From assembly GCA_049840735.1 (NCBI GenBank), contig JASGJN010000019.1:18169-82168 (forward strand): 64,000 nt of DNA, read 5' to 3'. Below the pieces are notes generated by a model. That model was not told the origin of the DNA and did not search any database. It saw nothing but the letters and a program-made list of their open reading frames with translations. Both the position numbers and the translations under genes were made by a program. The first letter of the stretch is position 1. Every line of letters starts with the position of its first letter. Source of the DNA: Anaeromyxobacter sp. (lineage in GTDB: Bacteria > Myxococcota > Myxococcia > Myxococcales > Anaeromyxobacteraceae). This document shows positions 17,842 through 56,797 of this stretch, piece after piece.

Positions 17842-18411
17842 ATGACCGACCCCAAGTCCTTCGTCTCCTCCGGGCGTGACCTGGAGGACAGCTTCTTCCT
17901 CCAGGAGGATCGCAAGCTGCTGGAGTGGCAGCGCAAGCTGCGGCAGCAGCAGGAGAGCCGGCAGGCGTTGGCCCAGGCCTCCGGCATCCGCGACGAGAAG
18001 GTGCTCGATCGCCTGGTCGCGCTCGGCGTCCGCCCCGAGAGCCTGGCGCCCCTGGCCCTGTTCCCGATCATCGAGGTGGCCTGGGCGGACGGGAAGCTCG
18101 ACGAGCGCGAGCGCAAGGCGGTGCTGGACGCCGCCGAGGCGCGGGGCTACAAGCCCGGGCAGCTGGAGTACGAGATGCTCCAGAGTTGGCTGCAGCACCG
18201 GCCGTCGCCCAGCATGTTCGAGACCTGGGAGCACTACGTGGCGGGCCTCCTGCCGCAGCTCGGGGCCGACGAGCGCGCGTCACTGCGGGGCGAGCTCCTG
18301 CAGCGGGCCCGCAAGGTCGCCGAGGCCGCCGGCGGGTTCCTGGGCCTTGGCAAGATCTCCGCCAGCGAGGAGGCCGCCATCGCCCGGCTGGAGCGGGCGC
18401 TCGCGGGCTGA
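17842..18411 (+). CDS. TerB-like (tellurite-resistance TerB/DjlA-N-like) domain protein
   Basis: 189 aa. LFPIIEVAWADGKLDERERKAVLDAAEARG...RGELLQRARKVAEAAGG resembles TerB-type helical modules. Confidence 0.45.
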   Translation: MTDPKSFVSSGRDLEDSFFLQEDRKLLEWQRKLRQQQESRQALAQASGIRDEKVLDRLVALGVRPESLAPLALFPIIEVAWADGKLDERERKAVLDAAEARGYKPGQLEYEMLQSWLQHRPSPSMFETWEHYVAGLLPQLGADERASLRGELLQRARKVAEAAGGFLGLGKISASEEAAIARLERALAG

Positions 18412-19071: not shown

Positions 19072-22197
<3,126 letters not shown>

Positions 22198-40307: not shown

Positions 40308-42162
40308 ATGCCCGGAATGTCCCCCCGAGACCCCGGTCCCGATCGGCAGGAACGCCGCGCGCGCGGCGTCACCGCGCGGCTGCTCCAGGGAAAGGGCCGG
40401 GTGGGCGCGCCCCGCTTCGGCCAGGCCTTCACCATCGGCACGGCGCCCTCCTGCGACGTCCAGGTGGACGCCCCCGGCCTTCCGCCGGTCCACGCCGAGG
40501 TGCTGCCGGACGGGATCCTCTGGTGGATCCGCGACCTCTCCGGCGGGCCCGGGACCTTCGTCAACGGCGCCCGCGCGCAGATGGTGCCGCTGCGGGATCG
40601 CGCCGAGGTGGAGCTGGGCAAGGGCGGCCCGCGCCTCGAGCTGGTGGTGCAGAAGGCGGGACGGGGGGAGGAGGACGAGGAGCAGGAGGAGGACGACGAC
40701 GACGAGGAGGCGCCGCAGCCGGCCGCCCCCGCTCGGCCCTCGCCCTTCGACTCCGCGAGCCCTGCGGGCTCGCTACGCTCAGGGCGAACGGATCGGGACC
40801 CCCAGCCGCCGGCAGCTTCGCAGCCCGGCCCGAAGCCGCCCGTCGCGACGCTCATCACCCCCGTCCCGCAGAAGGGCGCACCGCCGCCGGTGAAGACCGA
40901 GCTCCAGCCGGCCCGCCCTGCCACGGGAAAGGGCCAGCCCCCGCCCCCGCGCCCGGACGACGACGATGACGCCCCCACGGTGAAGCGCCCGCCGCGCAAG
41001 GGCGCCGCCGAGCCCGGGCCCAGCGGGAAGCCCGCCACGGAGAAGGACCTGCTGCGCCGCTTCCTGCGCAAGGACGCGCCCGGCGCGGCGGTCGGCCACG
41101 AGACCATGATGTTCCGCAAGGCGCTGGCCACCGCCAAGAAGCGGTCGCTGCTACCCTGGCAGATCCTGGCCTCGGTGGCGCTCACCGCGGCGCTGCTGGC
41201 GGCCGGCGTCATCTACCACCAGCAGCGCAAGCTCACCGAGCTGCGCGCCAGCGCCGAGAAGCTCTTCTACGCCTCCCGCGCCATGGAGGTGGAGGTGGCC
41301 CAGCTCGAGGAGATCGTGCTGGCCCACACCGACCGGAAGGTCCTGCAGGAGCTGCTGGACCGGAAGTCCAGGCACGCCGCGCTGGAGGCCGAGTACGACA
41401 GCTTCGTGCGCGAGCTGGGCGTCTACGCCAAGGCCTCGCGCGACGAGCAGGTGATCATGCGCGTGGCCCGCGCCTTCGGCGAGTGCGGAATCGGCATGCC
41501 GAAGGACTTCGTGGCCCAGGTGCGGATCTACGTGGACCGCTGGCGCACCTCCAACCGGCTGGCCAACGCCCTGAAGCGCTCGGCGGCGCGCGGCTACGGC
41601 CCGGCCATCCAGCGCGTCTTCGTGGAGGCCGGGCTGCCCCAGGCAGTACGTCTACCTGCCGCTGCAGGAGAGCGGCTACGACGACCGCGCGGTGGGCCCG
41701 CCCACCCGCTACGGCCACGCCAAGGGCATGTGGCAGTTCATCTCCGCCACCGCCACGCGCTACGGCCTGCAGATCGGTCCGCTCTACAATCAGCCGGCCT
41801 ACGACCCGCGCGACGACCGGTTCGACTGGCAGAAGGCCACCACCGCGGCCGTGCGCTACATCAAGGAGCTGAACGCCGAGGAGGCCCAGGCCTCCGGGCT
41901 CCTGGTCCTGGCCTCCTACAACTGGGGCGAGACGCACGTCCGGGAGACCATCGAGAGCCTCCCGGCCAACCCGCGGGAGCGGAACTTCTGGCGGCTGCTC
42001 CGTGACCGGCGCGTCCCGAAGGAGACCTACGACTACGTCATGTCGATCTTCTCGGCCGCCGTGATCTGCGAGGATCCGAAGCTTTTCGGCTTCGACCTGA
42101 CCTGCCCCGAGCTGCAGGAGCTGGACGTACGTCCGGCCAGCGGCGCCCCCGCGCGGCAGTGA
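40308..42162 (+). CDS. FHA domain - acidic/Pro-rich linker - TM helix - coiled coil - lytic transglycosylase (SLT) fusion, frameshift near 41645
   Basis: The FHA part is FTIGTAPSCDVQVDAPGLPPVHAEV...IRDLSGGPGTFVNG. The TM helix is ILASVALTAALLAAGVIY. The SLT core is LPLQESGYDDRAV...AKGMWQFISATATRYGL...ASYNWGE. Confidence 0.7.
40743..40791 (+). repeat. REP-like palindromic element embedded in frame inside the FHA-SLT CDS
   Basis: cccttcgactcc-gcgagccc-tgc-gggctcgc-tacgctcagggcgaacgg has the same arms as the intergenic copies at 52775 and 56650. It is translated as PFDSASPAGSLRSGRT. Confidence 0.7.
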
Positions 42163-42317
42163 GCCACAGCCGGCCGGCCCTGGCCCGTCGATCCCCGTCC
42201 TGGGGGTGAAACAGCCGCATGGCCAGACCCCTCGTTTCGAGGGATACTGACCGGACCGGCAGTGCACACAGGATGGGCCCCGGCCACGCGCAGCGCGGCC
42301 GTCGGGAGGGGAACCGC

Positions 42318-44938
42318 ATGCGCGTCGAGGCTCGCTCGCTGGTCCGGAAGCTCACCCCCACCGCCACCCGCGCGCTCGAGGCCTCGGTGGGCCGCGCCGC
42401 CCAGGGCGGCTACTACGAGCTGACGGTGGAGCACCTGCTCTCGTCGCTGCTCGAGCCGGACGAAGGCGACGTCGCGCTGCTGATGCAGGCGCACGGCGCC
42501 AATCGCCGCCGGCTGGCCGGCGCGGTGGAGCGGGTCCTCTCCGCCATGAAGACCGGCAACCCGGGGCGCCCGGTCATCTCGGAGAGCGTCTTCACCTGGC
42601 TGGAGGAGGCCTGGCTGACCGCGTCGGTGGACCTGGGCGCGTCCAAGCTGCGCACCGGCCACCTGCTGCTGCAGCTGGTCGCCAAGCCCGACCGCTACAC
42701 CGGCGACTCCTACGCGGTGCTGGAGGAGCTGGACGAGAAGGCCATGAAGGCCGGGCTGGAGGACCTGCTGGCCGGCAGCCCGGAGGCGCACGAGGCGCTG
42801 GTGGAGGGCGCGGCGGCGCCGGGCGGCGAGGGTGCTCCCGGCAAGCCCGGGCAGGCCGGCGGTGAGGCGCTGGCGCGCTTCGCCACCAACTTCACGCAGC
42901 GCGCCCGCGACGGCAAGATCGACCCCATCTTCGGCCGCCACCGCGAGATCCGCCAGGTGATCGACATCCTGGCCCGCCGCCGCAAGAACAACCCCATCAT
43001 CGTGGGCGAGCCGGGCGTGGGGAAGACCGCGCTGGTCGAGGGGCTGGCGATCGCCATCGCCGCGGGCGACGTGCCGGACGCGCTGAAGGAGGTCGAGCTG
43101 CTGGGGCTCGACCTGGGGCTGCTCCAGGCCGGCGCCAGCGTGCGCGGCGAGTTCGAGAACCGGCTCAAGGCGGTCATCTCGGAGGTGAAGGCCTCGGCCC
43201 GGCCCATCATCCTCTTCATCGACGAGGCCCACACCATGATCGGCGCCGGCGGCACGGCCGGCGGCAGCGACGCGGCCAACCTGCTCAAGCCGGCGCTGGC
43301 GCGCGGCGAGCTGCGGACCATCGCGGCCACCACCTGGAGCGAGTACAAGAAGTACTTCGAGAAGGACGCCGCCCTGGAGCGGCGCTTCCAGCCGGTCAAG
43401 GTGGACGAGCCCTCCGACGAGGACGCGGTGGTGATGCTGCGCGGCCTGCGCGCCGCCTACGAGGCGGCGCACGGGGTGGTGATCCGCGACGAGGCCATCA
43501 CCGCCGCCGTGACCCTGTCCCGCCGCTACCTCTCCGGCCGGCAGCTGCCGGACAAGGCGGTGGACCTGCTCGACACCGCCGCCGCCCGCGTCAAGATCGC
43601 CCTGGCCGCCCGGCCGGAGGCGCTGGTGGCGGCGCAGGAGGAGATCGCCGCCCTGGAGCGGGCCCGCGCCGCGGTGACCCGCGACGTGACCGACGGCCAG
43701 CGCAAGGAGGACGGCGCGGTGGCCGACCTCGACGCCCGCCTGGCGGCGGCGCGCGACCGCGTGGCGGGGCTGGAGACGCGGCTGGGCGCGGAGCGCGCGG
43801 CGGTGGAGGCCCTGCGCGCGGCGCGGGCCGCGCTGGCCGAGGGGAAGGGCGACCGGGCCGCGGTGGACGCGGCGGCGGAGGCGCTGGCCAAGCTGCAGGG
43901 CGAGCGCCCGCTGCTCCACGCCGAGGTGGACGCCGACGCGGTGGCCCGCGTGATCGAGGCCTGGACCGGCGTGCCGGCGGGCAAGATGCGCTCGGGGCAG
44001 ATCCAGGCGGTGCTGGAGGTCGAGCAGCGGCTCACCGAGCGCGTGAAGGGGCAGCCGGAGGCGGTGAAGGCGGTGGCCGAGGCGCTGCGCATCTCGCACG
44101 CCGGCATCCGCAACCCGGGCGCGCCGGTGGGCGTGCTGCTCTTCGTGGGCCCCAGCGGCGTGGGCAAGACCGAGACCGCGGTGGCGCTGGCCGACCTGCT
44201 CTACGGCGGCGAGCGGTTCATGACCCAGATCGCCATGAGCGAGTTCCAGGAGAAGCACTCGGTCTCGCGGCTGATCGGCTCGCCCCCGGGCTACGTCGGC
44301 TACGGCGAGGGCGGCCGGCTCACCGAGGCGGTGCGGCAGCGCCCGTACTCGGTGGTGCTGCTGGACGAGTGCGAGAAGGCCGACCTGGAGGTGATGAACC
44401 TCTTCTACCAGGTGTTCGACAAGGGCACCCTCACCGACGGTGAGGGGCGCGAGGTGGACTTCAAGAACACCCTGGTGATCCTCACCTCCAACCTGGCCAC
44501 CGACCTGATCATGGCGGCCTTCGACGACGAGGAGAAGCCCACCGCCGAGCAGGTGGCGGCCGCCATCCGGCCCATCCTCTCCAAGCACTTCAAGCCGGCG
44601 CTGCTGGCCCGCATGACCATCGTCCCCTTCGCGCCGCTGCCGAAGGACGTGCTGAAGGGAGATCGTCCAGCTCAAGCTGGGCGCGCTGGCGAAGCGGCTC
44701 ACCGCCAGCCACGGCATCCAGGCCGCCTTCGCGCCGGAGCTGGTGGACCACCTGGCCGGCCGCTGCCAGGACCCGGGAGACCGGCGCCCGCAACGTGGAC
44801 CACGTGCTGCGCGGCGGGCTCATGTCCGACCTCGCCCGCGCGCTGCTGGAGCGGATGGCCTCCGGCACCCCCGCCGCCCGCGTGGCGGTGGCGGTGGACG
44901 CCCAGGGCGCCTTCCAGATCACCTTCGACGAGGCCTGA
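42318..44938 (+). CDS. clpV: ClpV (TssH) AAA+ ATPase, two apparent +1 frameshifts near the 3' end (~44658, ~44777)
   Basis: The Clp N-domain is followed by Walker A motifs GEPGVGKTA and GPSGVGKTE. Other matches are RFQPVKVDEPS and SRLIGSPPGYVGYGEGG. The tail EIVQLKLGALAKRL... / ETGARNVDHVLRGG...FDEA* is in the two other frames. Confidence 0.9.
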
Positions 44939-44941
44939 GCC

Positions 44942-46465
44942 ATGCTCGCCCTGCACGTCCGTGTCCAGGAGCTCGACGGCGGCGGGACCCACGAGACCTA
45001 CGCGTTCCACCGCTCGCCGGTGCGCGTGGGGCGGGGCGAGCTGAACGACCTGCGGCTTGACTATCCGTACGTCTCGAACTGGCACGGGCTGATCCAGTTC
45101 GACGACGAGGGGATCCGCTTCGTGGACCTGGGGTCCACCAACGGCTCGTTCCTGGACGGCGTGCGGCTGGACAAGAACGTCCAGGCCACCATCCAGCCCA
45201 GCCACGAGCTCCTGCTGGGCCGGCTGCAGCTGGTGCTGAGCCGCGAGAGCGCCGAGGCGCACGCGCCGGCGCCGCCGGCCCCGCCGCACTCGGTGACGAT
45301 GTTCGCCCGGCGCGTGGCGCTGGACCAGGCCGTGGCCGGCGCCCTCTCCGGCCGGCTGGAGAAGCTGGCCCGCGAGGAGGCGGGCGCGCCTGCCCTCCCG
45401 GTCGAGCCGGCGGCTCCGCACGTCGAGGCCGCGCACGCGCCGGCGCCGCACCTCCCGGCGCCCCCGCCTCCATCTCCGCTCCCGCCCCCGCCGCCTGCGC
45501 CGGTGGCCGACAGCCCGGCCCTGCTGGCCGCACTGGACACCGCCTCCTGGCAGCTGGGCGTGCTGCACGACGCCTGCAAGCAGGCCGACGAGAACTTCAC
45601 GGCGGCGCTGGACCAGGCCATCGCCTTCCTGAGCGAGCCGGAGCAGGCCCGCGCCCGGGTGCTCGCGGCCGAGCGCTTCCCGAACGCGCCGGGCCAGCCC
45701 GCCGCCGCCGCGCCGCCGGCCTGGGCGGCCCCGGCTCCGGTGGTTCCGGATCAGGCGGCCCCGCCCCGCTCGGACTCCGTTCGCGGTGAGCCTGTCGAAC
45801 CGCGAACGGGGGCTGAATGGGGCCCAGGACGGCCCCCCGACGACAGCCCCGGCGCCGCCACCGCGCTGCTGCGCGTCTTCGCCGAGGCCTACCTCGGGCC
45901 GGAGGCCGCCCCGCGCACGCCCGAGGCCCAGCAGGCGCTGCTCTCGGTGCTGGCCGAGGTGCTGGAGACGGCGGCGCGCGGCTACCTCGAGCTGCGCAGC
46001 GGCTACGAGCAGTTCGCCCGCGAGATCGGCATCCGCCTGCCGCGCAGCGAGGGGGCCATCGGCAAGATCACCGACGCCAACCAGCTGGTGACCTGGCTGC
46101 TCCAGCCCACCGACGGCGAGCCGCGCGCCCACCAGCTGGGCAGCGCCTTCGCGGATCTCATGATCCACCAGGTGGGCCTGCTGAACGGCGTGCAGGCCGG
46201 CGGCCGCGCCCTGCTGGACCGCCTGTCGCCCGGCGCGCTGACGCGCGAGGTGGAGAAGAAGGGCGGCTTCGGCATCGGCCTCCGCCCGCTTCGCGAGGCG
46301 GCGCTGTGGCGGGCGCTGGAGGAGAAGTTCCAGGAGCTGACAGAGGAGGACAACGCCGTCACCGACGTCCTCTTCGGCAAGGAGTTCGCGCGGGCCTACG
46401 CGGCCCTGACCGGCCGCCGCCCCACCGGCGACAGCGACCCGCGCCTCGACCAGAAGCGGCGCTGA
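44942..46465 (+). CDS. tagH: TagH-like T6SS-associated FHA-domain protein
   Basis: The N-terminal FHA is VRVGRGELNDLRLDYPYVSNWHGLIQFDDEGIRFVDLGSTNGSF. A Pro/Ala linker follows. The conserved C-terminal part is LAEVLETAARGYLELRSGYEQFAREIGI...FADLMIHQVGLLNG. Confidence 0.75.
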   Translation: MLALHVRVQELDGGGTHETYAFHRSPVRVGRGELNDLRLDYPYVSNWHGLIQFDDEGIRFVDLGSTNGSFLDGVRLDKNVQATIQPSHELLLGRLQLVLSRESAEAHAPAPPAPPHSVTMFARRVALDQAVAGALSGRLEKLAREEAGAPALPVEPAAPHVEAAHAPAPHLPAPPPPSPLPPPPPAPVADSPALLAALDTASWQLGVLHDACKQADENFTAALDQAIAFLSEPEQARARVLAAERFPNAPGQPAAAAPPAWAAPAPVVPDQAAPPRSDSVRGEPVEPRTGAEWGPGRPPDDSPGAATALLRVFAEAYLGPEAAPRTPEAQQALLSVLAEVLETAARGYLELRSGYEQFAREIGIRLPRSEGAIGKITDANQLVTWLLQPTDGEPRAHQLGSAFADLMIHQVGLLNGVQAGGRALLDRLSPGALTREVEKKGGFGIGLRPLREAALWRALEEKFQELTEEDNAVTDVLFGKEFARAYAALTGRRPTGDSDPRLDQKRR

Positions 46466-46485: not shown

Positions 46486-47433
46486 ATGAACCGTTCCTCG
46501 CGCTCCGCCGCGCCCGCCCTCGCGGCGCTCGCCCTGGCCCTGCCCGCCTGCGCCCCCACCAGCCCGCACCCCTGGTCCTACGAGGGCATCTGCTCCGTCG
46601 ACGTGGACATGGGCCAGGCCGCCGACGCGGCCGCCTGGCGACGCCTGGTGCTGGGTGACCGCTCCCACCGCGGCGTGCGGGACTGCACCGGCACGCCGGT
46701 GGTGTGGGAGGGCCCGGTGCTCCAGTGCGGCGACGCCGAGGTCACCCGCGCCGCGCTGCCGGCCCGCCCCGCCTCGGAAGGCGGCGAGGACGTGGTGGTC
46801 AGCGACGTGGACCCCTCGCACAAGCTGGTCTGGGTGCTCACCGACTTCCTGGCCACCGGCGACGCGCTGGGGCCGGTGGCGCTGGTCGAGATCCGCAACC
46901 GCATGATCCGCGTCGAGGCCATCGGCACGCTGCGCGCCTACCGGAGCGCCAAGCTGCGCCTGGTCCACTCCGGCGGCGCGGTGGTGCTGGTGGCGGAGGG
47001 GCAGGGCTGCGCCGGCGCCGGCCCGTCCACCTGCGGGCGCGCGGCGCGCCTGATGGCGCTCTCCGGCGCGCGCTTCCAGCAGAGCCAGCTGGTGGACGCC
47101 GGCGGCAGCTGCCTGGGCGCGGGCTGGGTGCAGCTGCAGCGCGAGGAGTACGAGGGCGGCACCGGCGGGCGCGAGCGCGTCTTCCGCCTCGACGCCTCGG
47201 TGGCCGGCGCCCCGGACGGCCTGAAGCTGACCGAGCTGGTCACCGTCCACGACCGCGACCCGCGCCGCCCCGAGGCGCCGGAGAAGCTGGTGCGCCGGGC
47301 CGAGTCCACCGCCGTCTACCGCGTGAACGGCGCCAACCTGGCCGGCGAGGCCGGCCCGCTCTGGGCCCGCATGGCCCCCGCCCCGGCGCCCGCCGCGCCG
47401 GTGCCGGTGCCGGCGCGCGGCCGCCGGAACTGA
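46486..47433 (+). CDS. hypothetical lipoprotein downstream of tagH
   Basis: The lipobox is LALALPACAP. The ORF is an intact 315 aa. I recognised no family. Confidence 0.5.
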   Translation: MNRSSRSAAPALAALALALPACAPTSPHPWSYEGICSVDVDMGQAADAAAWRRLVLGDRSHRGVRDCTGTPVVWEGPVLQCGDAEVTRAALPARPASEGGEDVVVSDVDPSHKLVWVLTDFLATGDALGPVALVEIRNRMIRVEAIGTLRAYRSAKLRLVHSGGAVVLVAEGQGCAGAGPSTCGRAARLMALSGARFQQSQLVDAGGSCLGAGWVQLQREEYEGGTGGRERVFRLDASVAGAPDGLKLTELVTVHDRDPRRPEAPEKLVRRAESTAVYRVNGANLAGEAGPLWARMAPAPAPAAPVPVPARGRRN

Positions 47434-47539
47434 GCGGGGTCCGGCTGCCCTCCGACTTCGCCGTGCCATCGGGACAAGCGGGACGGGGGGTGGGCCGATC
47501 CCGGTCCCGAGCGCGGCTTCCCCTTGGCGACGCGGTAGA

Positions 47540-49590
47540 GCGGCGGCGCGATCGCACCGGAGGGGACGGCACTGCGGGCCTTGCGAAGGATCCGTTCGGG
47601 CTGAGCGTAGCGGCCGCGAGGCGGCCGCGGAGTCGAAGCCCAAGGTTGCCACCGGGATCCGCAGGCGTTCGGTCCCCGTTCATCCTTCGACTCCGGGCCC
47701 GGTCCACCGGATCCTGCCGAGCCGAGGCCGGGCCCCTACGCTCAGGACGAACGGATGTGGGACCGCGATCGCACCGGAGAGGACGGCACTGCGGGCCTTG
47801 CGAAGGATCCGTTCGGGCTGAGCGTAGCGGCCGCGTAGCGGCCGCGGAGTCGAAGCCCAAGGTTGCCACCGGGATCCGCAGGCGTTCGGTCCCCGTTCAT
47901 CCTTCGACTTCGGGCCCGGTCCACCGGATCCTGCCGAGCCGAGGCCGGGCCCTACGCTCAGGACGAACGGGATGGGGACCGCGATCGCACCGGTGGGGAA
48001 CGGCACTGCGGGCCTTGCGAAGGATCCGTTCGGGCTGAGCGTAGCGGCCGCGAGGCGGCCGCGGAGTCGAAGCCCAGGGCTTGCCACCGGGAGCCGCAGG
48101 CGTTCGGTCCCCGTTCATCCTTCGACTCCGGGCCCGGCCCACCGGATCCTGCCGAGCCGAGGCCGGGCCCTACGCTCAGGACGAACGGGATGGGGACCGC
48201 AATCGCACCGGAGGGGACGGCACTGCGGGCCTTGCGAAGGATCCGTTCGGGCTGAGCGTAGCGGCCGCGTAGCGGCCGCGGAGTCGAAGCCCAAGGTTGC
48301 CACCGGGATCCGCAGGCGTTCGGTCCCCGTTCATCCTTCGACTTCGGGCCCGGTCCACCGGATCCTGCCGAGCCGAGGCCGGGCCCTACGCTCAGGACGA
48401 ACGGGATGGGGACCGCGATCGCACCGGTGGGGAACGGCACTGCGGGCCTTGCGAAGGATCCGTTCGGGCTGAGCGTAGCGGCCGCGAGGCGGCCGCGGAG
48501 TCGAAGCCCAGGGCTTGCCACCGGGAGCCGCAGGCGTTCGGTCCCCGTTCATCCTTCGACTCCGGGCCTGGTCCACCGGATCCTGCCCGAGCCGAGTCCG
48601 GGCCCTACGCTCAGGACGAACGGGATGGGGACCGCAATCGCACCGGAGGGGACGGCACTGCGGGCCTTGCGAAGGATCCGTTCGGGCTGAGCGTAGCGGC
48701 CGCGAAGCGGCCGCGGAGTGGAAGCCCAGGGCTTGCCACCGGGATTCGCAGGCGTTCGGTCCCCGTTCATCCTTCGACTCCGGGCCCGGCCCACCGGATC
48801 CTGCCGAGCCGAGGCCGGGCCCTACGCTCAGGACGAACGGATGGGGACCGCGATCGCACCGGAGGAGACGGCACTGCGGGCCTTGCGAAGGATCCGTTCG
48901 GGCTGAGCGTAGCGGCCGCGAGGCGGCCGCGGAGTCGAAGCCCAAGGTTGCCACCGGGATCCGCAGGCGTTCGGTCCCCGTTCATCCTTCGACTCCGGGC
49001 CCGGTCCACCGGATCCTGCCGAGCCGAGGCCGGGCCCTACGCTCAGGACGAACGGGGATGGGGGACCGCGATCGCACCGGAGGGGACGGCACTGCGGGCC
49101 TTGCGAAGGATCCGTTCGGGCTGAGCGTAGCGGCCGCGAAGCGGCCGCGGAGTCGAAGCCCAGGGCTTGCCACCGGGAGCCGCAGGCGTTCGGTCCCCGT
49201 TCATCCTTCGACTCCGGGCCTGGTCCACCGGATCCTGCCGAGCCGAGGCCGGGCCCTACGCTCAGGACGAACGGGATGGGGACCGCGATCGCACCGGAGA
49301 TGCTCGCGGCGCAGCCAATCCGTTCGGGCTGAGCGTAGCGGCCGCGTAGCGGCCGCGGAGTCGAAGCCCAGGGCTTGCCACCGGGATCCGCAGGCGTTCG
49401 GTCCCCGTTCATCCTTCGACTTCGGGCCCGGTCCACCGGATCCTGCCGAGCCGAGGCCGGGCCCTACGCTCAGGACGAACGGGATGGGGACCGCGATCGC
49501 ACCAGTGGGGACGGCACTGCGGGCCTTGCGAAGGATCCGTTCGGGCTGAGCGTAGCGGCCGCGAGGCGGCCGCGGAGTCGAAGCCCAGGC
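47540..49590. repeat. tandem array (~9.5 copies) of a ~217-bp composite unit built from two REP-like palindromic elements in opposite orientation (BIME-like)
   Basis: The marker gcgggccttg recurs at 47575, 47791, 48008, 48225, 48442, 48660, 48876 and 49094 (spacing 216-218), and again at ~49519 (425 bp later, i.e. two units). Each unit holds one ccttcgactcc...ctacgctcaggacgaacgg element and one inverted ccgttcgggctgagcgtag-gcggccgc...gcggccgc-ggagtcgaagcc element. Confidence 0.9.
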
Positions 49591-49620: not shown

Positions 49621-50440
49621 TCACGCCCACGGCCGCAGCCGCTCCAGCTCCTCGCGGATGGCCTGATCGTCCGGCGCGGCCTTGTGGGCGTCCTCGAGCC
49701 GCGCCACGGCCAGGCCGATGCGGCCGGCGGCGAGGTGGTCGAGCGCCTCGGCGTAGAGCTTCTGCGCCGCGGGCGAGCGCCCTGGCGCGCGATCGGGCAG
49801 CTCGCGCCCGAGCGCGTCGGCAGCGGCGGCGATCTCGGCGCGATCGAAGATGGCGCGCCAGGCGCCGGGGCCGGGCGAGCGGGTCGGATCCAGCACCACC
49901 TGCCGGCGCGACACCAGCGCGAAGAGCGCCCCCACGGCGCGCTGCGGGCCCGGGCCGAAGGACTTCACCAGCGCCTCCACCGTCACGCCGCTGCCGATGC
50001 GGCGCAGCAGCGCCAGCTCCTCCGGCGCGAAGTCCACCAGGTAGCGGGGCGGCTCACCCAGGTAGACGCGCGAGCGGGCCGGCAGCCGCTCCGGGACGCG
50101 GCGCACCGCGCCGGCCGCCACGGCGTCGGCGGCCAGCAGCGCCTCGAACCAGCCGCGGTCGGTGGCGCCGGGGGTGAAGCGGATGCCCAGCCGCGAGGGC
50201 GACTGCGCGCGCGACCAGATCACCTTCCCGTGGGCGCGGATGGCGCGGCCCGGCGTCGAGAATCTCCAGGCTCACCTCGCGCCCGGGCTCGATCAGCCGC
50301 GGCGTCACCAGCTGGCACCCGCTGGGCCCGAGGTCCTCCGTCTCCGCCGCCCAGGACGAGAACCGGTGGCGGACCTGGACCGCATAGCGGGCCGGGAGGC
50401 GCGGGGCGCGCCTGGGGTTGAGGACGTCGGTGACGTTCAA
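49621..50440 (-). CDS. PilZ-domain protein with helical C-terminal part, frameshift near 50235; start uncertain
   Basis: NPRRAPRLPARY and EDLGPSGCQL (PilZ RxxxR / DxSxxG motifs) are in ORF 50054-50515. The gene continues as KVIWSRAQSPSRLGIRF in ORF 49621-50223. A candidate TTG lies at 50440 with GAGG upstream. Confidence 0.5.
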
Positions 50441-50632: not shown

Positions 50633-51753
50633 ATGGTGTCCCATCCTTCCCCGCACCGGATCGCCGACGGCGAGGTGCTGGTCTACCGGCTCTTCGACGT
50701 GGCCGACGCGGTGGATCTGGCCCGCGCCGAGGGGCTGGTGACCGCGCCCAGCTCGCGCCTGCGCCTGGAGGGCGTCCAGTCCTCCTCCGCCCTCGAGTTC
50801 CCGCGCCCGCCCATCCAGATCCGCGTGGGCCGCCGCAGCGTGCCGCTCTCGGGCGGCGCGCGCGAGGTCGAGGCGGTGGCGCGGGTCTTCGATTTCGGCG
50901 TGATCTCGATCTGTTACCGCCTGCCGGTGGCCGCCGGGACGGCGCTCGAGGCGCTGGTGCCGCTGGCCGAGGAGCTGTTCGTGGCGCCCGCCCCGGCGCT
51001 GGACGCCGAGGCGCGCCGCGAGGCCGAGGCGGTGGCCGCGGCGCTGGCGCCGGCCCTGGAGCGGCCGCACAGCTGGGAAGGGCTGGAGGGCTACCAGGTG
51101 GTGCTGGTGCGGCGCTGGGAGGGCGGGCCGGTCGCCGCCACCGACCTCCTGGCGGGGGCCCCCATCCCCGCGCTGCTGCTGGGCGAGACCAGCCACGTGG
51201 CCCTGTCGGCGGCGGAGCGGCAGGACGTCCTCTCCCACCACTGGTCCTACCTGGAGGACGACCTGGCGGTGGTGCACTGGAACAGCGCCCTGGTGGTCGA
51301 GCCTTCGGGGGTGGAGGACATCCCGCACCTGCTCGAGTTCGCGACCGCGCACCTGCTGGAGCTGCGCTACTACGACGCCCTGCTCGACGGGGCGCTGCAC
51401 CGGCTCTACGACGACATGGAGCGGGGCGGCAGCCCGGTGCTCGACATCCTGACGCGCCGTTACCGGGGGCTGCAGCGCCGCACCGCCGCGCTGCTGCTGG
51501 AGCTCTCCGAGATGACGGAAAGGCTGGAAAATGCGGTGAAAATCGTGGGCGACCTGTACCTGGCCCGCGTCTACCAGGGGGCCGTCCGGCGCTTCCGGCT
51601 GCCCGCGTGGCAGGAACCGTGCTGCGCAAGCAGCGGCTCGTCGCCGAGGTCAACGACCTGACCGGCGACGCGGCCGACGTGAGCCGCTCGGAGCTCCTGG
51701 AGATGGCCATCATCCTGCTGATCGTATTCGAGCTGGTGGCCGCCCTCCGGTGA
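50633..51753 (+). CDS. RMD1/DUF155-family protein, frameshift near 51618
   Basis: VLVYRLFDVADAVDL...VFDFGVISICY...LAVVHWNSALVV...LLELRYYDALLD...IVGDLYLARVY fits DUF155. The C-terminal TM tail (LLEMAIILLIVFELVAALR*) is in another frame. Confidence 0.6.
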
Positions 51754-52760: not shown

Positions 52761-52774
52761 GGCGCGATCCCTGC

Positions 52775-52823
52775 CCTTCGACTCCGCCGCCGCTTCGCGG
52801 CGGCTACGCTCAGGGCGAACGGG
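52775..52823 (+). repeat. solitary REP-like palindromic element (forward)
   Basis: The element reads cccttcgactcc-gccgccgc-ttcg-gcggcggc-tacgctcagggcgaacgg. Confidence 0.7.
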
Positions 52824-52845
52824 TGCCGTGGGCTTTGCGGGCCCG

Positions 52846-53016
52846 AGCGAGCCCGCCTGGCCGAGCGAGCCCGCCCGGCCTGAGCGAGCCTGCCTGGCCC
52901 GAGCGAGCCCGCCCGGCCTGAGCGAGCCTGCCTGGCCCGAGCGAGCCCGCCCGGCCTGAGCGAGCCCGCCTGGCCCGAGCGAGCCCGCCTGGCCCGAGCG
53001 AGCCCGCCCGGCCTGA
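52846..53016. repeat. ~19-bp microsatellite, about 9 copies (GAGCGAGCCYGCCYGGCCY)
   Basis: Direct reading of 52841-53020 shows it. The unit length is not a multiple of 3, and the unit resembles the ggcctgagcg arm of the adjacent REP-like element. Confidence 0.85.
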
Positions 53017-53023
53017 GCGTGAA

Positions 53024-53076
53024 CCCGTTCGGCCTGAGCGTAGGGCGCGCGACCAGCGCGCCCGGAGTCGAAGGCC
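53024..53076 (-). repeat. solitary REP-like palindromic element (inverted)
   Basis: cccgttcggcctgagcgtag-ggcgcgcg-accag-cgcgccc-ggagtcgaagg is the reverse complement of the cttcgactcc...ctacgctcagg.cgaacgg architecture. Confidence 0.7.
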
Positions 53077-53096
53077 AGGAGATCGAACGGCAGGGC

Positions 53097-53935: not shown

Positions 53936-54451
53936 ATGACCAATCCAGGTGCTGTGAGCGCGGCAGGCGACCTGCCGCGCGAGAAGGTCGAGCACTTCGA
54001 CCGCGAGCTGGCCGGCATCCTCCAGCGCTATCCGCCGGACCGGAAGGCCGCCGCCATGATCCCAGCCCTGCGGCTGGGGCAGGAGCTGTTCGGCCACGTG
54101 TCACCGGGCGTGCAGGCCCTGGCGGCCGACCGGCTGGGCGTCTCGCCGGCCCGCGCGGAGGAGGTCGCGACCTTCTACGTGATGTTCCACACCGAGCCGG
54201 TGGGGCGGCACGTGGTCGAGGTCTGCACCAACATCTCCTGCTGCCTCTCCGGCGCCGAGCGGCTCTGGGAGCACCTCAGCCGCAAGCTGGAGGTGAAGAA
54301 CGGCGGCACCACCGCCGACGGGCGGATCACGCTGCGCGAGGTCGAGTGCCTGGGGTCCTGCGGCACCGCCCCGGCCATGCTGATCGACGAGGAGATGCAC
54401 GAGCGGCTCTCGCTGGATCAGGTCGACCGGATCGTCGGGGGGCTCGAGTGA
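53936..54451 (+). CDS. nuoE: NADH-quinone oxidoreductase subunit E
   Basis: The sequence reads ATFYVMFHTEPVGRHVVEVCTNISCCLSGAE...ECLGSCGTAPAMLID (2Fe-2S cysteines). Confidence 0.9.
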   Translation: MTNPGAVSAAGDLPREKVEHFDRELAGILQRYPPDRKAAAMIPALRLGQELFGHVSPGVQALAADRLGVSPARAEEVATFYVMFHTEPVGRHVVEVCTNISCCLSGAERLWEHLSRKLEVKNGGTTADGRITLREVECLGSCGTAPAMLIDEEMHERLSLDQVDRIVGGLE

Positions 54452-55770
54452 GCGACACCCTCATCATCACCCGCCGCTGGGGCAAGCCGGACTCCGCCGC
54501 GCTCGAGACCTACCGCGCCGACGGCGGCTACCAGGCGCTGGAGAAGGCGCTGGGCATGGCGCCGGGCGCCGTCGTGGACGAGGTCAAGGCGTCCAACCTG
54601 CGCGGCCGCGGCGGCGCCGGCTTCGCCACCGGCCTCAAGTGGACCTTCCTGCCCAAGGACGTCCGGCCCCGTTACCTGACGGTGAACGCCGACGAGTCCG
54701 AGCCCGGCACGTTCAAGGACCGCTACATCATCGAGCACGACCCCCACCTGTTGATCGAGGGGATCGCCATCACCTGCGTCGCGCTCGACATCCACCGCGC
54801 CTACGTCTACATCCGCGGCGAGTTCGCCAAGCAGGCCCGCATCCTGGAGCAGGCGCTCGAGGAGGCCCGGGCGGCCGGCATCATCGGGGCCAAGGTGCTG
54901 GGGCGCGACTTCGACCTCGAGGTGCACGTGCACCGCGGCGCAGGCGCGTACATCTGCGGCGAGGAGTCGGCGCTGCTCGAGTCACTGGAGGGGAAGAAGG
55001 GCTACCCCCGGCTCAAGCCGCCCTTCCCGGCCGTGGTCGGGCTCTGGGGCAAGCCGACCATCATCAACAACGTCGAGACCATCGCCAACATCCCCTGGAT
55101 CGTGGCCAACGGCGGCGCGGCCTTCGCGGCGCTGGGCACCGGCAAGTCCGGCGGCACGCGCCTCTTCTGCGTCTCGGGCCACGTGAACCGGCCCGGCGTC
55201 TACGAGAAGCCGGTCCACTACAACCTGAAGAAGCTGATCATGGAGGACTGCGGCGGGATCGTGGGCGGCCGGAAGGTGAAGGCCGTGATCCCGGGCGGCT
55301 CCTCCGCGCCGATCCTCGCGGCGCACGAGATCGACGTCTCCATGGAGTTCGACGCGCTCAAGGCGGCCGGCACCATGGCCGGCTCGGGCGGCATCATCGT
55401 CTTCGACGAGTCCACCTGCATGGTCCGGGCGCTGGCCCGCGTGGCCAAGTTCTACGCCGAGGAGAGCTGCGGCCAGTGCACCCCCTGCCGCGAGGGCACC
55501 TCGTGGATGGAGGGCGTGCTGGAGCGGCTCGAGCACGGCCACGCCAGCGAGGCCGACGTGGCCAAGCTGGACCAGCTGGCCAGCAGCATCATGGGCATGA
55601 CCATCTGCGCCCTGGGCGACGCCGCCGCCATGCCGGTCCAGTCGTTCCTGAAGAAGTTCCGCGACGAGTTCGTGCAGCACGCCCGCGAGCGCCGCTGCCC
55701 GCACGGCGACAGCGCCTGGGGGCTGGAGCAGGCCTCGCGCCAGGCGCAGGTCGGGGCGATCGTCTACTGA
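54448..55770 (+). CDS. nuoF: NADH-quinone oxidoreductase subunit F
   Basis: The GTG at 54448 overlaps the nuoE stop. It carries GRGGAGFATGLKW, NADESEPGTFKDR and ESCGQCTPCREG. Confidence 0.9.
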   Translation: MSDTLIITRRWGKPDSAALETYRADGGYQALEKALGMAPGAVVDEVKASNLRGRGGAGFATGLKWTFLPKDVRPRYLTVNADESEPGTFKDRYIIEHDPHLLIEGIAITCVALDIHRAYVYIRGEFAKQARILEQALEEARAAGIIGAKVLGRDFDLEVHVHRGAGAYICGEESALLESLEGKKGYPRLKPPFPAVVGLWGKPTIINNVETIANIPWIVANGGAAFAALGTGKSGGTRLFCVSGHVNRPGVYEKPVHYNLKKLIMEDCGGIVGGRKVKAVIPGGSSAPILAAHEIDVSMEFDALKAAGTMAGSGGIIVFDESTCMVRALARVAKFYAEESCGQCTPCREGTSWMEGVLERLEHGHASEADVAKLDQLASSIMGMTICALGDAAAMPVQSFLKKFRDEFVQHARERRCPHGDSAWGLEQASRQAQVGAIVY

Positions 55771-56610: not shown

Positions 56611-56649
56611 CACACCGGAGCCCTTGGCGCGCCGCGGCGACTGCGCCTG

Positions 56650-56698
56650 CCCTTCGACTCCGCCGCCGCAGGGCGGCGGCTACGCTCAGGGCGACCGG
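56650..56698 (+). repeat. solitary REP-like palindromic element after nuoK
   Basis: The element reads cccttcgactcc-gccgccgc-aggg-cggcggc-tacgctcagggcgaccgg. Confidence 0.7.
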
Positions 56699-56797
56699 AT
56701 GGCGAGCGGCGGGGATGGCCGACCGCGGCATCGCGTCCGGGGACGGGCCCGATGATTGCCGCGCGCCCGGCGGGTGCGGCGGGGTAAGCTCGGGCCA

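Follow-up and report, generated by a model that had tools for sequence, protein, structure and literature searches.

The DNA analysed here is a 64,000-nucleotide stretch of an Anaeromyxobacter sp. genome (GenBank assembly GCA_049840735.1, contig JASGJN010000019.1, forward-strand positions 18,169 to 82,168), referred to below as the window and numbered from its first letter. Between two converging genes, the window carries an array of about nine and a half tandem copies of a 217-bp unit, each composed of two hairpin-forming elements that resemble repetitive extragenic palindromic (REP) sequences and lie in opposite orientations. The gene to the left, which encodes a lipoprotein-like protein, is the last of a type VI secretion system (T6SS) cluster. 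It is preceded by the genes for ClpV (42219-45044) and the T6SS FHA protein TagH (44942-46465) and, farther upstream, by those for TssF, a DUF2169 protein, a STAND kinase, and other T6SS-linked genes. The gene to the right is PilZ-like, and its stop codon (49621-49623) lies 31 nt past the end of the array. The gap between the two 3' ends (stops at 47433 and 49621) measures 2187 bp and is filled by the array; local DNA is 72 to 78% GC.

Tandem Repeats Finder (TRF) reported the array as the dominant repeat of the region, with a period of 217, 9.5 copies, 94% matches, 2% indels, and a score of 3645. Anchoring the units on an invariant 19-mer, CCGTTCGGGCTGAGCGTAG, gave ten forward elements (Table 1), with successive starts 217, 217, 217, 217, 218, 216, 218, 208, and 217 bp apart. 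Nine inverted elements lie between them, and orientation alternates strictly along the array. The flank 19-mer (≤3 mismatches) matched the window 24 times, compared with 0.18 matches expected by chance, and 19 of the 24 matches fell within the array. Each unit holds one forward element, REP(+), with the stem GCGGCCGC and one inverted element, REP(-), with the stem GGGCCCGG, placed head-to-head; the intervening spacer A (~43 nt) and spacer B (~54 nt) are conserved across all units. The first REP(+) begins 45 nt into the array and the array stops 4 nt past the last one, leaving the same REP(+) module at both ends.

Differences among the units are patterned. Unit 2 (u2) and u4 showed 0 differences, u3 and u5 differed at 4 positions of the unit alignment, u1 resembled u7, and u2 resembled u9. 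An exact internal repeat of 354 bp occurs at an offset of 434 bp, where the two-unit block u2u3 (47809-48242) is duplicated as u4u5 (48243-48677); given this repeat, the identity of u2 and u4, and the near-identity of u3 and u5, the 434-bp higher-order block is real. Unit 8 is 9 bp shorter and carries a divergent, unrelated stretch in spacer B. These results bear out the sequence-only reading of the locus, which had described about 9.5 copies with a period of about 217 bp, one forward and one inverted element per unit, two spacer variants, and a ~434-bp higher-order repeat, although it did not mention the 208-bp unit (u8). It had also singled out GGATCC and GCGGCCGC palindromes, of which the array holds 23 and 20, respectively, together with 16 copies of GGGCCC and 8 of GCGATCGC. 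About half of the window's rare-cutter sites lie within these 2 kb (NotI, 20/38; BamHI, 23/48; GCGATCGC, 8/13).

Read on the strand that carries GTAG (the GTAG strand), the element has the form CCGTTCG-NN-CTGAGC-GTA-[G...stem-loop...C]-GGAGTCGAAG, which generalises to [CCGTTC]G-N1N2-C / TGAGCGTA / GC-rich hairpin / GGAGTCGAA / G-N2'N1'-C. The two elements of a unit are of the same kind in opposite orientations. GTAG directly preceded the stem (...GAGC-GTAG-stem) in all 19 array copies and in the four best dispersed copies. Column C39, before TAC, was invariant in the alignment; TAC, but not the G, was fixed by the pattern used in the collection scan.

The dispersed copies came from a pattern search and from an unfiltered run of a covariance model based on 23 copies. 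The 62 kb of the window outside the array yielded five solid copies with four different stems, four of them extragenic and one in frame inside a gene (Table 1), and none of the copies outside the array was paired with a partner across spacer A. Gene-proximal copies in the window shared a single orientation relative to the preceding gene (5/5) and lay 13 to 40 nt past stop codons. In the copy at 19335-19399, the otherwise invariant closing pair is swapped (GTGG...CCAT), which adds support for the closing helix described below. The copy at 40735-40793 lies in an acidic, proline-rich linker of the T6SS FHA gene and is translated as ...PFDSASPAGSLRSGRT..., with third-position GC falling from 0.97 to 0.80.

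A second small tandem array, at 52840-53040 (period, 19/38 bp; about 9.5 or 5.3 copies), occupies the gap between the GNAT and PilZ-response-regulator genes, between converging REPs at 52766-52824 and 53023-53083. Its unit, GGCC(T/C)GAGCGAGCCCGCC(T/C), repeats a fragment of the REP flank GGCCTGAGCG, and REP-linked slippage thus recurs in the source genome. The orthologous gap in Anaeromyxobacter sp. Fw109-5 (L170 8594-8629) holds a hairpin-less relative, CCGAGC-CTG-TCGAAGGG, inside an inverted repeat (CACCGCTCCCC...GGGAGGGCGGTG), while the window's orthologue of that gap carries complete REPs. An older, simpler motif may have gained the apical hairpin by insertion.

Table 1. Coordinates of the tandem array, its elements, dispersed copies, and adjacent genes (positions in the window; +/-, strand, which for REP elements is the GTAG strand;., not strand-specific).
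Feature	Coordinates	Strand	Basis
Whole tandem array, 9.5 x 217-bp unit	47547..49589	.	TRF, unit alignment
REP(+) 1: CCGTTCGGGCTGAGC-GTA-GCGGCCGC-GAG-GCGGCCGC-GGAGTCGAAGCC	47592..47640	+	
REP(-) 1: CCTTCGACTCC-GGGCCCGG..25-nt loop..CCGGGCCC-CTACGCTCAGGACGAACGG	47684..47754	-	
REP(+) 2, loop GTA	47809..47857	+	
REP(-) 2	47901..47970	-	
REP(+) 3	48026..48074	+	
REP(-) 3	48119..48188	-	
REP(+) 4	48243..48291	+	
REP(-) 4	48335..48404	-	
REP(+) 5	48460..48508	+	
REP(-) 5	48553..48623	-	
REP(+) 6, loop GAA, GGAGTGGAAG variant	48678..48726	+	
REP(-) 6	48771..48840	-	
REP(+) 7	48894..48942	+	
REP(-) 7	48986..49055	-	
REP(+) 8	49112..49160	+	
REP(-) 8	49205..49274	-	
REP(+) 9	49320..49368	+	
REP(-) 9	49413..49482	-	
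REP(+) 10, terminal, 35 nt from the stop of the minus-strand gene, oriented as the other gene-proximal copies	49537..49585	+	
Duplicated 434-bp two-unit block with the 354-bp exact repeat	47809..48677	.	unit alignment
Spacer B of unit 8, divergent, 9 bp shorter	49295..49319	.	unit alignment
Dispersed copy, stem GCGAGCCC, in frame within FHA-domain gene	40735..40793	-	
Dispersed copy, stem GCCGCCGC, 13 nt past GNAT gene stop	52766..52824	-	
Dispersed copy, stem GGGCGCGC, ~20 nt past stop of minus-strand PilZ-response-regulator gene	53023..53083	+	
Dispersed copy, stem GCCGCCGC, loop AGG	56642..56700	-	
Diverged dispersed copy, closing pair C-G to G-C	19335..19399	+	53.8 bits
Possible decayed copy right after the upstream gene's stop	47440..47483	+	weak, 16.7 bits, E 0.04
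Upstream gene, 315-aa lipoprotein-like protein without Pfam family, last of T6SS cluster	46486..47433	+	
Downstream converging gene, homologue of a relative's 270-aa PilZ-domain protein, frameshifted near 50255	49621..50428	-	
FHA + SLT gene, a single 612-aa protein in a relative	split near 41620		
PilZ-like 270-aa gene	split near 50255		
MJ0711_N-like gene	split near 51620		

The sequence-only reading had proposed a search for the element beyond the array. In addition to the five other sites in the window, at least 86 loci with element flanks were recovered from other genomes in a scan of one genome per species, using flanks only and leaving the stem unspecified. Among the matches listed were Anaeromyxobacter, Anaeromyxobacteraceae, other Myxococcota, Binatia, Betaproteobacteria, metagenome-assembled genomes (MAGs) of Nitrospirales and Thermoanaerobaculia, and, within Rhodanobacteraceae, Rhodanobacter, Fulvimonas, Dyella, Frateuria, and Dokdonella; some of the genomes among these matches had several loci each. 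Anaeromyxobacter oryzae carries comparable head-to-head heterodimers. Five copies in Anaeromyxobacter oryzisoli SG63 (L033 1935-2396) are arranged directly head-to-tail at ~87-bp spacing, an architecture unlike that of the window array. Relative to flanking genes, 69 flanks across loci in other genomes were co-oriented and 42 anti-oriented, a weaker bias than that in the window.

At one orthologous locus in six Rhodanobacteraceae (L008, L040, L063, L067, L077, and L085), the motifs are perfect and the adjacent spacer has diverged, with compensatory stem changes between GCTCGC/GCGAGC and GCTTGC/GCAAGC. The element there lies ~40 nt before the ATG of MNYQSGFGNEF...; in L085 the upstream gene is different, and the element is retained with the downstream gene. 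Composite copies occur in Binatia and Anaeromyxobacteraceae MAGs (L005, L032, L047, L017, and L044), with an element part (GCTTCGC-TACGCTCAGGATGAACGG...) nested or partly duplicated where the hairpin would be; GCTTCGC, the minimal hairpin, and the d(GCGAAGC) mini-hairpin are complementary. No element copy was found in 2.9 million viral contigs, no plasmid matched the 434-bp two-unit block, and a spacer-A 28-mer invariant in all array units had 0 matches in the metagenome collection. Open reading frame (ORF) families neighbouring the element at 86 loci reflected only the synteny of related Rhodanobacteraceae and included no transposase-like family. Literature searches for the element's sequence words and spurious translations returned primer coincidences only, and nothing relevant was found on Anaeromyxobacter with REP or with the REP-associated tyrosine transposase (RAYT).

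The structure of the element is under selection. The 126 copies contain 64 distinct stems, of 5 to 11 bp in most copies, and these stems stay paired. In 114 of the 126 copies, the NN of CAG-NN-CGAAC can form Watson-Crick pairs with the dinucleotide immediately 5' to CTTCGAC, in at least seven combinations. In 23 copies of equal length, the apical hairpin was 96.7% paired, with double-sided changes in six of its eight pairs, and the closing helix also showed compensatory changes. The covariation score was 0.357, compared with 0.098 in shuffles (0/500 reached the observed value) and 0.05 to 0.07 when partners were slid by one to three columns. Since stems and NN were absent from the search pattern, this result is not circular. 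Loops on the GTAG strand were mostly of the G..A type (GCA, 19; GAA, 12; GTA, 5; GGA, 3; plus GCCA, GATA, and GTCA), with 39 GNA-type triloops and none of the complementary T..C type. C-GNA-G triloops, such as that of d(GCGAAGC), form exceptionally stable DNA mini-hairpins. The loop types favour the view that the GTAG strand folds as single-stranded DNA; mismatches (3 G.T versus 7 A.C) were too few to tell the folding strand.

Within a doublet, the GTAG ends of REP(+) and the following REP(-) point outward and their flanks are complementary. Because these flanks pair, a single strand of the doublet is expected to fold as a four-way junction, predicted to comprise an outer stem of CCGTTCG..CTGAGCGTA flanks, one hairpin private to each element, and a GGAGTCGAAG/CTTCGACTCC stem capped by the 43-nt spacer. 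The central stems are mutually non-complementary, which makes the doublet a heterodimer rather than one long hairpin. Predicted folds of the doublet reached -59.5 kcal/mol as DNA (z, -3.4), -108.6 kcal/mol as RNA (z, -3.5), and -111.6 kcal/mol as RNA of the opposite strand (z, -4.1).

The sequence-only reading had stated that the window contains no RAYT gene, and a tblastn search (E of 1e-3) with 151 probes, consisting of Escherichia coli TnpAREP (identical to PDB 4ER8) and 150 diverse representatives, agreed: no match was obtained in the window or in 88 element-bearing loci. Conversely, the element was within 2.5 kb of 0 of 80 metagenome RAYT loci retrieved with a profile of GC-rich RAYTs. 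A word-indexed homologue search returned enterobacterial RAYTs only. E. coli TnpAREP itself was not recognised by Pfam at an E of 0.001, and silence of Pfam therefore cannot exclude RAYTs. With these searches negative, a transposase link, the hallmark of classical REP systems, is unproven for this element, although the negatives cover the window and the sampled loci and are compatible with a cognate RAYT elsewhere in the carrier genomes.

Comparison with known repeat systems places the array among REP clusters. Its elements are GC-rich imperfect palindromes that form stem-loops with GTAG at the palindrome end, as in REPs, but they do not share a characteristic stem sequence. Alternating orientation, conserved linkers, and two alternating REP variants are features of bacterial interspersed mosaic elements (BIMEs), and the array particularly resembles E. 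coli BIME-2, with its Y and Z2 REPs. Like E. coli BIMEs, it lies at 3' ends of genes and its copy number varies by local reiteration; unlike them, it has an unrelated element sequence, longer linkers, and 19 REPs. E. coli BIMEs are known to contain about 12 REPs at most. BIMEs are further characterised by the binding of IHF, DNA gyrase, or Pol I and by effects on mRNA stability.

The array also resembles clusters in Pseudomonas fluorescens SBW25, in which REP doublets forming hairpins (REPINs) occur in tandem, the largest cluster having four REPINs and an extra REP over >700 bp (Bertels and Rainey 2011, PMC3116915). The ordered GI-GIII REP arrays of SBW25 have two REP types at alternating spacings of 112 and 72 bp and reach 12 elements (PMC3116915). 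In both systems, near-identical REP doublets are tandemly repeated together with their flanking sequence in extragenic DNA, and two REP types alternate at two fixed spacings, here the ~43- and ~54-bp spacers. In contrast to SBW25, the window array is larger (nine doublets and one REP over 2.04 kb), the two stems of its doublet are unrelated and yield a four-way junction instead of one long hairpin, no RAYT link was found, and the host belongs to Myxococcota. The doublet was also not found as a dispersed replicating unit, as is characteristic of REPINs, in the window, metagenomes, and plasmids searched.

Di Nocera et al. 2013 (PMC3733652) define a GTAG-tagged REP superfamily of 24 families, in which REP dimers repeated in tandem together with flanking DNA are known. 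In this superfamily, GTAG abuts a 6- to 10-bp GC-rich stem with a 3- to 4-nt loop, dimers are head-to-head (HH), tail-to-tail (TT), or head-to-tail (HT), some copies lie in ORFs or beside stops, and some families are common to distant phyla (PMC3733652). The window family shares these features, its doublet being of the 'head-to-head' type. Unlike the superfamily, it conserves not the stem but 8- to 9-nt motifs on either side of it (CTGAGCGTA / GGAGTCGAA), along with a closing helix of 4 bp that covaries. Its sequence words occurred in no relevant paper among those searched, and it was not assigned to any of the 24 families.

At the structural level, the BIME-like interpretation offered by the sequence-only reading holds: GTAG-tagged hairpins alternate, two linkers are conserved, and single copies are dispersed. 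The unusual size that it stressed is relative; the array is larger than those compared, but arrays of up to ~12 REPs (PMC3116915) and tandem dimers (PMC3733652) were already known. The array is a larger, very regular case of an already known kind of repeat cluster; with it, the known range of REP, BIME, and REPIN clusters comes to include Myxococcota as well as arrays of this size and regularity. What remains novel is the element family, which is cross-phylum, structurally constrained, and, at the loci searched, unaccompanied by a transposase.

We consider it probable that the locus is an amplified REP-doublet cluster, BIME-like or tandem-REPIN-like, whose function is incidental or structural. 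Such a cluster may have started, downstream of the PilZ-like gene, from an ancestral REP(+)-REP(-)-REP(+) trimer whose two direct REP(+) copies exchanged unequally by homologous recombination, or slipped during replication, to produce the 217-bp repeat. The doublet with its two spacers would then have been amplified in place about ninefold, with later exchanges duplicating the two-unit block. We infer this origin by recombination from the patterns of unit similarity, the 354-bp repeat, and the same REP(+) at both ends, all of which fit repeated unequal exchange. The array would persist as a hairpin-rich, recombination-prone spacer between converging units; it would serve as a hypervariable marker (a variable-number tandem repeat) and is likely a recombination hotspot at the edge of the T6SS cluster.

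If the array is active at all, its 19 stable predicted hairpins between converging transcription units would most likely act as a passive barrier or 3'-end protector, or alternatively take part in supercoiling or protein binding, roles that REPs and BIMEs are reported to have. That the array is neutral DNA, selfish or left by slippage, is just as plausible. The orientation bias of gene-proximal copies is compatible with REP roles in 3'-end protection, termination, or translation-coupled effects and equally with a replication-strand bias. Since orientations alternate within the array, no one sense-specific role can apply to all of its copies.

Several results weigh against an amplified REP-doublet cluster. 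No RAYT was found in the window or the 88 element loci, nor was one tied to the element in the 80 RAYT loci; the stems are nearly freely variable (64 in 126 copies), whereas classical REP families share stem sequence; and the exact doublet with its spacers was found nowhere else in the metagenomes, plasmids, and window searched, a result that falls short of a mobile REPIN. In addition, the copy number rests on one assembly, and three frameshifted genes within 10 kb suggest assembly indels.

One alternative is that the elements are not ordinary RAYT-mobilised REPs but belong to an undescribed cross-phylum family of structured nucleic-acid elements, recognised by a conserved host factor and under purifying selection at orthologous loci, with the array serving as a 19-site platform, sponge, or organiser at the T6SS border. 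Such a family would be marked by two invariant loop motifs (CUUCGACUCC / UACGCUCAG or the complement), by a closing helix of 4 bp that covaries, and by an apical hairpin that covaries freely and is capped by G..A loops. This pattern of conservation reverses that of textbook REPs, with loop motifs fixed across phyla and stems that vary yet pair; should a conserved partner that binds the element, and not a transposase, lie behind this pattern, it would bear on the long-standing question of the purpose of REP-like elements. We regard this alternative as unlikely, though deserving of some weight.

Another proposal is that the locus is a functional RNA locus whose units are transcribed into RNA with four-way junctions, which would function either as structured RNA present in multiple copies or as a sponge that takes up an RNA-binding factor specific to the loop motifs; the element would then be an RNA motif and not a DNA-level REP. 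Conservation of the motifs across phyla, covarying helices, significant fold z-scores, the Rhodanobacteraceae orthologous element (kept with compensatory stem changes while its flanks diverged), and the orientation bias (5/5 gene-proximal copies in the window; 69 versus 42 flanks across loci) are all consistent with this proposal. However, an Rfam scan of 46.5 to 50.5 kb at E values up to 1 gave chance matches only (nhaA-II and mir-4436), neither sigma-70 promoter nor intrinsic terminator consensus was found within the array, and a tRNA/tmRNA search, prompted by the T-arm resemblance of GTTCGACTCC, found none. Alternating orientation would leave only half of the elements of any transcript in the preferred sense, and the GNA loops, with 39 triloops against 0 complementary ones, are on the GTAG strand, opposite to the strand present in mRNAs of gene-proximal copies. 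The array is also absent at this position in relatives. On balance, an RNA locus appears improbable.

About as improbable, in our judgement, is an assembly artefact in which the unit is real and a shorter array was inflated to 9.5 copies by mis-assembly. The 354-bp exact internal repeat is beyond the resolution of 150-nt reads, and no sequencing run was found that matched the array or its 10-kb flank; the lone candidate run, identified with the left flank, matched only by chance, in short GC-rich stretches, with no match across the array. Reading frames are broken in three neighbouring genes within 10 kb whose homologues are intact (Table 1), which suggests indel errors of a long-read assembly; such errors are more likely here than pseudogenes. 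Because indels are suspected, the 1-nt differences in unit length (216 and 218 bp), which fall in C or G runs, are untrustworthy. Against an artefact, the variants are ordered and non-periodic (loops GAG, GTA, and GAA; TCC/TTC; two forms of spacer A; the unique spacer of unit 8), an order that a collapsed or looped graph would not yield, and the array is interior to a 110,734-bp contig. Long-read assemblies typically show frequent indels, and 2 kb is within the reach of a single long read; the 2-kb span is plausible if the assembly is of that type. The recurrent substitution variants are probably real.

Open frames of 130 to 344 codons cross the array on both strands, and the idea that one of them (e.g., 48515-49549) encodes a repeat protein can be set aside: GC is flat at 0.69 to 0.77 across all three codon positions, compared with 0.95 to 1.0 at third positions of the flanking genes, 217 is not divisible by 3, no frame had a significant Pfam match, and a GC content of 72% leads one to expect open frames on both strands. 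The array is non-coding, and the sequence-only reading was right to treat these ORFs as repeat translations; such false ORFs are a warning for annotation. A CRISPR-like or integron-cassette-like array, which the palindromic repeats at regular spacing might call to mind, was rejected as hardly credible, as each of the two 'spacers' recurs, nearly unchanged, in every unit, the repeats alternate in orientation, the spacers lack ORF cassettes, and no cas or integrase genes lie nearby.

The array was not found at the orthologous position of either flank in the relatives compared. The product of the lipoprotein-like gene had no relative above 60% identity; in relatives, homologues of the gene precede either tssJ, K, L, and M or an ordinary spacer of 300 bp. 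In Fw109-5 and one metagenomic relative, purF occupies the position of the window's T6SS cluster and array. Judged from these gene orders, the array marks a synteny break. Rightwards from the PilZ-like gene, the order MJ0711_N-like, HU, GNAT, PilZ-response regulator, nuoE, and nuoF is shared with the same two relatives. NuoF (54346-55770) is 82 to 87% identical to Anaeromyxobacter and Anaeromyxobacteraceae proteins, in keeping with the myxobacterium-like genome that had been proposed from the letters alone.

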